Shown in pieces: positions 21,001-24,000 of a stretch of 33,803 bases of DNA. The stretch comes from Escherichia coli. Its GTDB lineage: Bacteria > Pseudomonadota > Gammaproteobacteria > Enterobacterales > Enterobacteriaceae. The stretch is taken from the NCBI RefSeq assembly GCF_003334335.1, contig NZ_QOWQ01000045.1; one strand, given 5' to 3'. Position numbers: made by a program. Position 1 is the stretch's first letter; the number at the start of each line of letters is the position of its first letter.

Positions 21001-24000
21001 ATAGTCCTGATTTTCAACGAAACCATATTCAGCAATACGTTCTGTTATCCACGATGCAAAGCGTTTACCAACCCCAAGGAAAGCGTGTAGATTGCGAGCA
21101 TTGCATAGAAGGGCTGCTTGGTTTGAGATAGAACCGTTGAATACGGGGATGAGTTGACTGGTCATGATGACCTCCTTATTTGTTTAGTTTATAACCGCCA
21201 GTTAGTAGCTGGCGGTCGGGTGTCAACTGAGCCAAATAAGAAGCTCTGGGCATATTCCCCTTGCGGGTGTTGTATTACGCCTCTCCACCCGACCTTTGTA
21301 CGGATGTAACTATGCCAAATTGCAGGCATAAAAAAGCCGCAAAGCTATCGGGTGCGGAGACCGCTTATTTGTTCAGTGCGATCAGTATGCGATAGCTCTG
21401 GCGGATTTGTCAAATCGTGCAGTAACATCCTTTTCTTCCTTGCCATTTCTCAATGATGACAAAGGGTGGATTCGGATTGGTATTGGGACAAAAGTGAGAC
21501 ACACAAAGCTTTGCATCGGCTTACAAAGCTTTGCATGTTTTTCAATGTTGGGACGTGTGAGCGCAGAAATGACGGGCTATCTAATTGATTTTAAACGATA
21601 CGTAACCAACTTTAAAATCTTTGCACGCCAGTTCGCAGGTTTTACAGCCAGTACAGCGGCTGGAATCGATAAAAAATCCATATTGTGTGGTCATGGGCTA
21701 CTCCTTAAACCTTTTCGATCTGGACAAGATTGCTGTGCGACGGGTTTCCCTTTGCCAGCGGTGAAGGGCGGTGAGAGGTCAGAATATTGATACTGCCGCC
21801 GTGATCGACCCGGTCACCAAACATATCCGCTTTAAGCCACGCACCTTGCCCGATGGCGGTAACGCCAGGCAGAATACGCGGAGTCACTTTTGCGGCAATC
21901 AGCATTTCTCCATTATTGTTAAATACCCGCACGGTATCGCCATGACGGATACCGCGTGCCTGAGCATCAATGGGGTTGATCCACACCTCTTGTGGGCAGG
22001 CCTGCTGTAACACATCAATATTGCCGTAGCTGGAGTGGGTACGCGCTTTGTAATGGAAGCCCGTTAACTGCAGTGGATAGGTTTTCCGCAGGGGATCGTC
22101 CCAGCCATCAAAACCTGGGGTATACGCAGGAAGGGGATGAATAATTTCATCTTTTTTCAATTCCCAGGTATCTGCAATCTTCGCCAGTCGTTCAGAATAA
22201 ATTTCGATTTTCCCCGAAGGTGTTTTCAACGGGTTTGCCTGTGGATCTTCACGGAATGCGCGGAAAGCGACGTAGTGTTCTTCCGGGCATTTTTTCTTAA
22301 AGATCCCGGTCGTTTTCATCTCCTCGTAGTCGGGCATCTCAGGGTTACGTTCCTTCGTTTTCGCATGGAGATATTTGATCCATTCATGCTGACTGCGACC
22401 TTCAGTAAAGGTTTGATAAACGTCTGGTCCTAAGCGTTTGGCGACTTCACTCAGCATCCAGTAGATGGGTTTGCGTTCAAATTTTGCTGAGGTTGCGGGT
22501 TGGGCGAGGATCACATAGCCCATATTCCCTGCAGATTCATGAGAGATAAGGTCTTCTTGCTCTGTTGGCATCAGGTCGGGCAACAGGATATCGCAATACT
22601 TAGCCGAGGCCGTCATGAAGTGGTCAATGCCAACAATCATCTCGCACTTGCTGTCATCCTGAAGCACCTCATGGGTGTGATTGATGTCGCCATGTTGATT
22701 GATCAATGTGTTACTGGCGTAGCACCATAAAAACTTGATGGGGACATCCAGTTTTTCTTTTCCACGAACACCATCACGGGTCGCGGTCATTTCCGTACCA
22801 TGGTCGATGGCATCTGTCCATGTAAAGACGGAAATCTGCGTTTTAACAGGATTCTCGAGCATCGGGAACCATTCTACCCCCAGATCCCAGCTACCTTCGC
22901 GTACGCCTGAGTTGCCGCCGTTTATGCCGACGTTGCCGGTGAGAACGGAAAGCATGGCAATAGCGCGGGATGTTTGCTCGCCGTTGGAATGTCGTTGTGG
23001 CCCCCAACCCTGACAAATATAAGCAGGTTTTGCTGAACCGATCTCTCGTGCCAACTGGATAATTTTTTCTGCCGGGATGCTGGTGATTTTTGCTGCCCAT
23101 TCCGGCGTTTTAGCTATGCCGTCAGGCCCTTCGCCCAGAATATAGGCTTTATAATGCGCGTTACGTGGTGCGTTGGCGGGCAGCGTTTTTTCATCGTAAC
23201 CAACACAATATTTGTCGAGAAATGGCTGATCGACCATGTTTTCAGTAATCAGTACCCAGGCAATCGCACAGGCCAGTGCGCCATCGGTGCCAGGGCGAAT
23301 GGGCAGCCATTCATCTTCACGCCCGGCAGCAGTGTCGTTATAACGTGGATCGATGACGATCATGCGTGCGTTTGAACGTTCGCGGGCTTGCTCGACGTAG
23401 TAAGTGACACCACCGCCGCTCATCCGCGTTTCTGCCGGGTTATTTCCGAACATAACGACCAGTTTCGTATTGGCGATATCATCTGGGCTGTTGCCATCAT
23501 TGGCACCGAACATATAACTCATTGCGGCACTGATCTGTGCGGTACTGTAGCTGCCATAGCGACTGAGAAAACCACCGCAAGAGTTCATCAGACGGTACGG
23601 GACGTTTGAGTTGGTGATGTTTCCGCCATCTACGCCTGTTCCGTACAGGACATGTACAGCCTCATTGCCGTAATCTTTCAGGATCCGCCGAAGATTATCA
23701 CTGATGGTATCCAGGGCTTCGTCCCAACTTATCCGTTCAAATTTACCTTCACCGCGCTTGCCGACGCGCTTCATGGGATATTTCAACCTATCAGGATGAT
23801 TCATCCGTCGGCGGATAGAGCGCCCGCGTAAACACGCTCGAACCTGATGATTACCGTAGACGTCGTCACCTGTCGTATCAGACTCCACCCAGTACACGGT
23901 GTCATCTTTCACATGCAAACGTAACAGACAGCGGCTCCCGCAGTTAACGGTGCAGGAACTCCAGACCGCTTTCTCTTCTACCGGAGCCTCTGCCGCCCGG

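Follow-up and report, generated by a model that had tools for sequence, protein, structure and literature searches.

In phage lambda, attP lies between int and the tI/sib element, a hairpin that is present in the 3' extension of the int mRNA only when the phage is not integrated. Lying beyond attP, tI/sib has a role for the int transcript comparable to the one considered below. The P arm of lambda attP also holds the Xis sites X1 and X2, which are 13-bp direct repeats with a 20-bp period. A closer relative of the locus described here is the attP of P22, with five TGGGAC sites: its P arm holds a tandem pair and a single site, and its P' arm a second tandem pair located within the 3' end of int.

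In this work we looked at a pair of palindromic direct repeats at the end of a prophage in Escherichia coli (contig NZ_QOWQ01000045.1). The whole stretch of DNA that was analyzed, 33,803 bp in length, is referred to as the window, and the features discussed are collected in Table 1.

The integration module and its attachment site

Judged by its sequence, the prophage carries a P22-type int–xis–attP module and the repeats lie within its P arm, which is now attR. The integrase is 71% identical to P22 Int over 377/387 amino acids and the Xis is 72% identical to P22 Xis over 116 amino acids. The Xis reading frame (L005, 2570-2941, minus strand) overlaps the int start by 145 nt at its 3' end and is an intact homologue; PGAP annotates it as a fragment only. 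The interval 21478-21595 is 82–85% identical to the attP P arm of P22, L and ST104, and phages POCJ13 and 75/02 Stx, both of which integrate in ynfG, match the module-specific part of the prophage end at 100% identity. In the reconstructed attP, the CTTTAAA core sits within the palindrome CAACTTTAAAGTTG, that is, a short common core with inverted core-type flanks. The module is carried on a 933W-like short-tailed phage backbone.

The motif TGGGAC(A/G) is found at five sites, three in the P arm and two in the P' arm, all in one orientation, with the order, spacing and orientation seen in P22; it is conserved in 71 related P arms. The repeats fill a spacer with a fixed length of 47 bp between the second and the third of these arm sites (P2 and P3). 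The int gene is located at attL and reads towards the core, and the repeats are found at the opposite end of the prophage, 74–107 bp inside the junction with ynfG. The original prediction had placed them about 60–100 bp from this junction; they are indeed inside it, and the distance measured from the core is the one given here.

Table 1. Features of the prophage end, in window coordinates
Feature	Position	Strand	Remarks
attP P arm, integration-module-specific part of the prophage end	21415..21609	.	933W-type homology stops at ~21413
Candidate Int arm-type site P1, TGGGACA	21484..21490	+	Shared, at this position, with P22 and 71 related arms; binding presumed
Candidate Int arm-type site P2, TGAGACA	21495..21501	+	11 bp after P1; overlaps the stem base by 3 bp
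Whole dyad, 17-bp stem (21499-21515 with 21522-21538) and 6-nt loop	21499..21538	-	Fold, and conserved pairing with compensatory changes
Repeat copy 1, ACAAAGCTTTGCAT	21503..21516	.	5' arm of the dyad in the + strand reading
Repeat copy 2, ACAAAGCTTTGCAT	21523..21536	.	3' arm of the dyad in the + strand reading
T5 run	21539..21543	+	Directly 3' of the stem; almost all of the 71 related P arms have a T-tract here
Candidate Int arm-type site P3, TGGGACG, with adjoining block GTGTGAGCGC	21549..21564	+	Conserved among related arms, partly by construction (see text)
IHF-like site AATCAATTAGATA	21578..21590	-	One mismatch to WATCAANNNNTTR, consensus match only; between P3 and the core
Truncated 5' part of ynfG	21581..21694	-	First 28 codons of ynfG, remainder read from phage DNA
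Crossover core CTTTAAA	21610..21616	.	Common to attL, attB (K-12 ynfG) and attR

The repeat pair as one dyad

The 14-mer ACAAAGCTTTGCAT occurs exactly twice in the window, with a start-to-start period of 20 bp and a gap of 6 bp (CGGCTT), and inside each copy there is the perfect 10-bp palindrome CAAAGCTTTG. The two palindromic repeats of the original prediction are thus present, about 10 bp away from the interval 21512-21547 that had been given for them, and the 22-bp spacing then assigned to them has to be corrected to 20 bp. Over the whole 33.8 kb this pair is the sole direct repeat of at least 14 nt with copies no more than 40 bp apart, so the tandem layout is not due to chance; two loose matches to the 14-mer, taken alone, were found in 9/100 shuffles. 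A third, partial copy had been proposed near 21340. The 8-mer GCAAAGCT does exist at 21339-21346, but with three occurrences in all, both repeats included, against 1.5 expected, it is at chance frequency, and it lies within DNA common to 933W-type phages that have a different integrase.

Owing to the palindrome in each copy, the two copies also base-pair with one another to give a 17-bp stem, which the original prediction overlooked. On the minus strand, which is the int-sense strand, 17/17 stem positions pair, three of them as G.U, and the fold of 81 nt has an energy of -23.1 kcal/mol (z -4.7; 0/200 shuffles as good). The plus strand folds less stably, with C.A mismatches at the same three positions. 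The stem is rich in A/U, with only five G-C pairs, and homologous folds were seen in P22, L and DLP12. An Rfam scan of 19800-21700 at a permissive E-value gave, over the repeats, only a sub-threshold match to mir-19 (26 bits against a gathering threshold of 50), which was rejected as an artefact of any long hairpin.

Conservation was analyzed in 71 unique related P arms, which align with no gaps. These arms were retrieved with the 16-mer at 21549..21564 as the search pattern, and conservation within that block is partly by construction. In this sample, the stem columns are 68.9% paired, as compared to 25–48% when the partner is slid, and the covariation score is 0.22, as compared to at most 0.145 with a slid partner; 0/500 shuffles reached it, a statistic inflated by the relatedness by descent of many sampled arms, which the slid-partner controls keep. 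Compensatory changes are seen as C-G/U-A/G-C at columns 21/50 and as C-G/G-C at columns 26/45. The distribution is bimodal: in 41/71 arms at least 11/17 positions form Watson-Crick pairs and the remaining 30 all have seven or fewer. The palindromes themselves are not conserved. Their counterparts are CAAATCTTTG and CAAGGCTTTG in P22 and TAAGGCCTCA and CAAGGCTTTA in the SfII/DLP12 group, and the palindromic half-sites are broken in the P22, L, SfII and DLP12 homologues. In the SfII/DLP12 group the identity between the direct repeats is down to 9/14, with two compensatory double changes that keep the stem. As read from these alignments, the relatives keep the pairing between the copies and neither the palindrome nor the direct-repeat sequence. 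In the comparison with related prophages, which the original prediction had proposed, it is thus the pairing that is conserved and not the palindromes. We regard the perfection of the palindromes and the exactness of the 20-bp repeat as specific to this lineage and not as a feature for recognition by a protein.

The 30 arms that have no stem in this register, some of which fold in a shifted register, all keep the spacer length and most have phased T-tracts; the hairpin is hence not essential to the site. T-tracts phased at ~10 bp are present in nearly all 71 arms, the hairpin-less ones included, and the length of the spacer is invariant. Sf6-type int genes, whose flanks vary, are also followed by the same hairpin, which begins 0–3 nt past their stop codon, and the products of these genes are only ~21% identical to the integrase of this prophage. 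The Sf6-type loci sampled are 97–100% identical to each other, and they show linkage to int with little independent covariation. In Emek, for example, the hairpin lies between convergent tailspike and int genes. Other neighbours of the element are gtrA in P22 and ompT in DLP12.

Possible functions of the element

The anatomy of the element is well supported; its function we infer. The reading that we prefer, with a probability slightly above one half (about 0.55), is that the repeats are the two arms of one dyad in the P arm of a P22-type attP, acting as a terminator or as a 3'-end hairpin of the int transcript and also as an architectural spacer. In the circular phage genome, int would be transcribed across the core into the P arm and the hairpin would form in the int RNA ~75–110 nt past the core, where it may end or stabilize the transcript or mark it for processing. 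Transcription from the opposite direction may also be blocked, with the T5 run directly after the stem. Integration would separate the hairpin from int, and the hairpin, then at attR, could prevent transcription from running through between the ynfEF operon and the phage antirepressor genes. At the DNA level, the 47-bp spacer, which has one T-tract per helical turn, is likely to determine how far apart the distal and the proximal arm sites are and how the DNA bends between them.

The position of the hairpin is consistent with this reading. It lies at attR, 74–111 bp beyond the core, downstream of int across the crossover point, and integration removes it from the int mRNA, which is the position required of a sib-type retroregulator. 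In the phage L and SfII records the homologue is annotated as a rho-independent terminator, by in silico prediction only. On the int-sense strand the tail GUGUGUCUCACUUUUG has four U's, the first of them 5 nt past the stem, which is poor for an intrinsic terminator. A canonical stem followed by U5 is present on the plus strand only, for which there is no obvious transcript at this locus. Among the relatives, the non-Watson-Crick stem cells comprise 78 of the A.C type and 54 of the G.T type, with no consistent strand preference. The K-12 Term-seq 3'-end tables of Adams et al. (2021) contain no 3' end at the DLP12 homologue (~585,946-585,985, NC_000913.3), in a region that is probably hardly transcribed, and this says little. 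The literature searched offered no usable report of retroregulation or sib in P22.

This lack of strand bias at the non-Watson-Crick positions is one point in favour of a simpler explanation, by which the element has no sequence-specific function and is a length-constrained spacer, whose dyad and repeat are there by descent or may be extruded as a cruciform when attP is supercoiled. The stemless arms (30/71) that keep the spacer length fit with it as well, and kinship among the sampled sequences inflates the shuffle statistics. Yet, we find this explanation improbable: several positions of the stem show compensatory double changes, the slid-partner controls, which retain kinship, pair far less, stem quality falls into two classes (at least 11 or at most 7 of 17 Watson-Crick pairs) and the element is kept directly after unrelated int genes with varied flanks. 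Another option, somewhat less doubtful but still rather unlikely, is that the repeats form a cooperative head-to-tail array for Xis or another architectural protein, with sites one helical turn apart that bend the P arm, as in lambda X1-X1.5-X2. In this prophage an intact Xis homologue is present and the repeats adjoin an Int arm site with a 20-bp period; in P22 there is a 10-bp TTTGCA period and the region can be read as four 10-bp units, ATCTTTGCAT, CGGTTTGCAA, GGCTTTGCAT and GTCTTTCGAA. The T-tracts phased at ~10 bp in nearly all arms, also where the hairpin is missing, and the invariant spacer length could be explained by such an array. Directionality factors are described in PMC7498355 as typically binding direct repeats one helical turn apart, and this usual mode of binding, as described there, would also fit. 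Against the array, the 10-bp units share little but TTT across the family, and spacer type does not follow Xis. The SfII/DLP12-type spacer is found with Xis proteins that are 85% (L122) and only 38% (L106) identical to the one of this prophage, whose own spacer type differs from that of L122 despite the 85% identity; this comparison covers only ~15 loci with both features. The element is also found after Sf6-type int genes, and in the HK633 and Emek records no excisionase is annotated upstream of int. By analogy with lambda P2-X1, the strictly conserved block GTGTGAGCGC beside P3 may be more likely to serve as a specific Xis site.

Two further readings concern the repeats as specific protein sites. 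The original prediction had suggested recombination arm sites, and it was right as to the location, in the P arm of a P22-type attP that is now attR. That the repeats are arm-type sites bound by the N-terminal domain of the integrase is nevertheless very unlikely. The position inside attP, 74–107 bp from the core, fits, and the 9-mer CTTTGCATC recurs in the P' arm ~65–75 bp past the core; but this 9-mer is absent from the P' arm of P22, and a search of 4 kb at the int end (L001) for the 14-mer, a check that the original prediction had proposed, found no match even with three mismatches allowed. Another motif, TGGGAC(A/G), is the one that is present on both arms and conserved in the family, and an 87% identical integrase (L122) is paired with a spacer whose first repeat differs at 6/14 positions. 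The other suggestion, and the main idea of the original prediction, an operator pair for a dimeric helix-turn-helix regulator of the neighbouring antirepressor genes, draws on the perfect 10-bp palindrome of each copy, on centres two helical turns apart and on the transcription of these genes leftwards from somewhere in 21166-21610. We consider it highly improbable. The palindromes are broken in the P22, L, SfII and DLP12 homologues. For the antirepressor genes, the sole promoter-like site of good quality (21413-21384, minus strand, with its -35 at 21413-21408) is ~90 bp away, in DNA common to 933W-type phages that lack the repeats, and the element travels with int–attP modules next to gtrA, ompT or tailspike genes and not with antirepressor genes. 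Weaker promoter-like matches (9/12) at 21588-21618 lie over the crossover core. Binding of IHF to the repeats was also considered as a main reading and rejected, with two mismatches in each copy to WATCAANNNNTTR and sites with a single mismatch at 21578-21590 and in the P' arm.

Returning to the combined hairpin and spacer, we tentatively suggest that the spacer of P22-family attP sites may have a dual use. It may be a tI/sib-like RNA hairpin that ties Int expression to the state of integration and, at the same time, a fixed-length DNA bend of phased T-tracts that replaces the extra IHF site of lambda, with the hairpin as a portable module that has moved between the P22-type and Sf6-type integrase families. 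P22 recombination has been reported as IHF-independent (Cho et al., 1999; PMC4111918, as entered in its Table 1).

Comparison with P22 and lambda

The element is ordinary and largely known, and it is no new kind of system. What can be gained from it is an exact right boundary of the prophage, at the core (21610-21616), and the identification of the integration module as P22-type; in annotation, the palindrome pair should not be labelled as a repressor operator. The comparison also indicates what is constrained in this attP arm, namely the length of the spacer, the phasing of its T-tracts, the TGGGAC sites and usually the hairpin, with the sequence of the spacer being unconstrained. This may be useful for the re-targeting or engineering of P22-family integrases, or for testing lambda-style retroregulation of int outside lambda.

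Like lambda tI/sib, the element is a hairpin across attP from int, which would enter the int mRNA as a 3' extension only in the free phage genome and loses its link to int on integration. The two are not similar in sequence, and here the hairpin is inside the P arm, between arm sites, whereas in lambda it is beyond the arm. In the Sf6-type modules the hairpin stays linked to int after integration, which is at odds with the sib logic. The repeats resemble lambda X1/X2 in the 20-bp period, the location in the P arm, a similar distance to the core and the adjoining Int arm site. Unlike what such Xis sites would suggest, the repeat sequence is not conserved where Xis is nearly identical, one spacer type is shared by very different Xis proteins, and it is the pairing that is conserved instead.

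The predicted terminators of phage L (MW013502, 19748-19796) and SfII (KC736978, 24720-24766) are homologous and have the same position in the P arm, and their predicted strands disagree, with plus in phage L and minus in SfII. The closest system is the P22 attP itself, whose P arm, part of the module of P22, L, ST64T, SfV, SfII and DLP12, is alike over 21478-21595 at the nucleotide identity given above. That module targets the thrW or argU tRNA genes, whereas here the CTTTAAA core is inside ynfG. Both dyad halves are imperfect in P22, whereas here there is an exact 14-bp direct repeat with each copy a perfect palindrome. The five TGGGAC sites and the fixed spacer are the same in both, and in P22 a homologous dyad is found at the same place.

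The repeats and their mutual pairing

The 14-mer ACAAAGCTTTGCAT is present exactly twice in the window and, as the original prediction had it, both copies contain the perfect 10-bp palindrome CAAAGCTTTG. The spacing, put there at 22 bp, is a period of 20 bp with a gap of 6 bp, and the predicted coordinates were ~10 bp too high. A whole-window scan for direct repeats 14 nt or longer, with copies no more than 40 bp apart, found this pair alone. The third partial copy proposed at ~21340 exists as the 8-mer GCAAAGCT, but at chance frequency, and it sits in a segment common to phages with other integrases. 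As the copies are palindromic, they can also pair with one another, and both the repeat scan and the terminator scan gave 17 pairs with a 6-nt loop. The repeats are genuine and not a product of chance, but the type of site that holds them is well known and their sequence is not new, being already present in published phages.

Features at the prophage edge (window coordinates unless stated)
Feature	Coordinates	Strand	Remark
Antirepressor-type ORF	20002-20793	-
sRNA-Xcc1 match (Rfam RF02221)	20672-20757	-	73 bits; gathering score 53
Antirepressor-type ORF	20881-21165	-	94 aa
sRNA-Xcc1 match (Rfam RF02221)	21206-21294	-	69 bits; gathering score 53
8-mer GCAAAGCT	21339-21346
Sigma-70-like promoter	21413-21384	-	TTGACA, 18-nt spacer, CATACT
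Integration-module segment	21415-21609
P-arm homology	21478-21595
P2-P3 spacer	21495-21548
Pairing segments	21499-21515 with 21522-21538
14-mer copies	21503-21516; 21523-21536
ynfG 5' remnant	21581-21694	-
Core CTTTAAA	21610-21616		7 bp
ynfF	21705-24131	-
xis homologue	2570-2941 of the DETEC-S792 left-junction locus	-	Outside the window; 123 aa

A P22-type attachment site in ynfG

The right junction in the window was compared with the left junction of DETEC-S792 (NZ_CP116067.1) and with the intact K-12 ynfG. All three sequences share the core, at which attP was reconstructed as CAACTTTAAAGTTG. In this E. coli DNA, ynfF and the opening 28 codons of ynfG lie to the right, and the left is occupied by a prophage that is 933W-like and identical to phage PhiR5_2. 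The position of the core therefore places the repeats 74-107 bp inside attR, the prophage end far from int; they are near the ynfG junction as predicted, with this distance replacing the earlier ~60-100 bp. Homology to 933W-type phages ends at ~21413, and the segment from there to the core is found at 100% identity in only POCJ13, 75/02 Stx and PhiR5_2, so it belongs to the integration module. ynfG was reported as the integration site of POCJ13 and 75/02 Stx.

The DNA around the repeats shows 82-85% identity to the attP P arm (the side far from int) of P22, L, ST104 and ST64T, and a more distant relationship to the P arms of SfII, SfV, DLP12 (located between the K-12 genes ompT and envY), Kati and one phage each of Enterobacter and Morganella. 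The prophage Int shares 71% identity with P22 Int, and an ORF overlapping the int start matches P22 Xis at 72% along its full length. Five TGGGAC(A/G) sites in one orientation lie at -129, -118, -64, +90 and +101 from the core centre of the reconstructed attP, and P22 attP has the same five; their presence on both arms and their conservation suggest that TGGGAC is the Int arm-type sequence. Consensus matching gives IHF-like sites, each with 1 mismatch, at -35..-23 and +46..+58. The second and third TGGGAC sites (P2 and P3) enclose a spacer, and the repeats occupy it.

Several observations concern the surrounding genes. The Xis homologue (72% over 116 aa) lies at the left prophage end, where RefSeq has just a 22-codon pseudogene, 'DNA-binding protein, incomplete', and the PhiR5_2 record is without any xis; the excisionase of this phage group seems under-annotated. 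The ynfG remnant runs in frame into phage DNA and stops after 37 codons. At the other junction ~61 kb of prophage separates the downstream ynfH-dmsD from the promoter of the operon, so that the YnfFGH reductase is probably inactivated by the insertion. In strain 2014C-3338 (NZ_CP027452.1, locus 1-3000) what comes after the same attR junction is a set of early-left-operon genes (TraR/DksA, DUF4752, Ea22-like, DUF551) in place of IbrAB and the tail region; its ynfG prophage seems to have been rearranged or to be another mosaic, and ynfE and ynfF are annotated as frameshifted there. The two tandem antirepressor-type (AntA/AntB-type) ORFs have near-identical N-termini (MTSQLIPVFNGSISN... in the shorter, MTTQLIPVFEGTISN... 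in the longer), and the shorter probably represents a truncated duplicate. Just upstream of each lies one of the sRNA-Xcc1 matches, and the sigma-70-like promoter points into the one at 21206-21294; these matches resemble a conserved leader at the 5' end, or an sRNA, associated with antirepressor genes of phages.

Conservation of the dyad between P2 and P3

The equivalents of the two copies are ACAAATCTTTGCAT and GCAAGGCTTTGCAT in P22, and ATAAGGCCTCACAA and GCAAGGCTTTACAT in the SfII/DLP12 group. The palindromes are lost in these close homologues; in the SfII/DLP12 group direct-repeat identity is down to 9/14, and two double changes (C-G to T-A; T-A to C-G) preserve pairing between the copies. 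For a wider sample, viral contigs were searched with the block beside the third arm site (TGGGACGTGTGAGCGC), a block that does not depend on the spacer sequence, giving 71 unique P arms that aligned without a single gap. The stem columns are 68.9% paired, versus 25-48% with the 3' partner displaced by 1-3 columns, and the covariation score is 0.22 versus at most 0.145; none of 500 shuffles reached the observed pairing or covariation value. What the analysis shows is that the two copies form the arms of a dyad that is conserved within the spacer from P2 to P3 of a P22-type attP. Stem quality is bimodal, with at least 11/17 Watson-Crick pairs in 41 of the 71 arms and at most 7 in the other 30. 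Spacer length is kept in nearly all arms, stem or no stem, and T-tracts recur once per helical turn (columns 26-28, 36-38, 47-49 and 55-58) in nearly all, even where the hairpin is missing. In this prophage the minus (int-sense) strand folds better (81-nt fold, -23.1 kcal/mol, z -4.7) than the plus strand (-18.5 kcal/mol, z -0.6), and the preferred strand varies across the family. As side observations, the aligned spacer (columns 12-65) is exactly equal in length in all 71 arms, and in some hairpin-less arms (e.g. L025, L112) an inverted GAGACAG-like copy ~20 nt downstream serves instead as the pairing partner of the second TGGGAC site.

The reading as a hairpin spacer is well supported over operators or arm sites. 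Dimeric operators of an HTH regulator, as originally predicted from the paired palindromes, are scarcely credible, since these palindromes are not conserved in homologues and no promoter lies near the repeats; the promoter-like site of the antirepressor region, for which an operator had also been proposed, is in DNA common to phages without them. The suggestion of recombination arm sites was right in placing the repeats inside an attP arm, but that they are themselves Int arm-type sites is highly improbable because the 14-mer, for which a search of the other prophage end had been suggested, was not found on the other attP arm. A Xis binding array is unlikely as well, even though direct repeats spaced by one turn are the usual targets of directionality factors (PMC7498355), and the P22 spacer has four TTTGCA-like units at 10-bp spacing. 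Spacer type does not track Xis type: the spacer of the SfII/DLP12 type accompanies, at locus L122, a Xis that shares 85% identity with that of this prophage and, at L106, one that shares only 38%, and the present spacer differs in type from that of L122.

Possible roles of the hairpin

The hairpin also occurs beside other integrases. HK633 and Emek have Sf6-type integrases (HK633 Int is only ~21% identical to this prophage's Int), yet in both the int stop codon is followed directly by a hairpin 83-85% identical to this one, and the Emek copy is located where the tailspike and int genes converge. At least 27 of 80 sampled Sf6-type int loci have this hairpin 0-3 nt past the stop codon, with differing DNA beyond. 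Phage L (+ strand) and SfII (- strand) both carry a terminator annotation, a predicted one in each case, on the homologous sequence. A K-12 3'-end data set had no end at the DLP12 homologue and is uninformative.

A plausible function is that, in the circular genome, int transcripts would run across the core and form this hairpin, which could serve as their terminator or 3'-end structure, analogous to tI/sib, the lambda terminator/retroregulator beyond attP. On the opposite strand the stem and T5 may block opposing transcription. Integration would part the hairpin from int, and it might then act as an insulator between the ynfEF operon and the end of the prophage. The constant length of the spacer and its phased T-tracts suggest that it also has an architectural role in the intasome, and such a role fits the report that P22 recombination does not need IHF (Cho et al. 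1999; PMC4111918).
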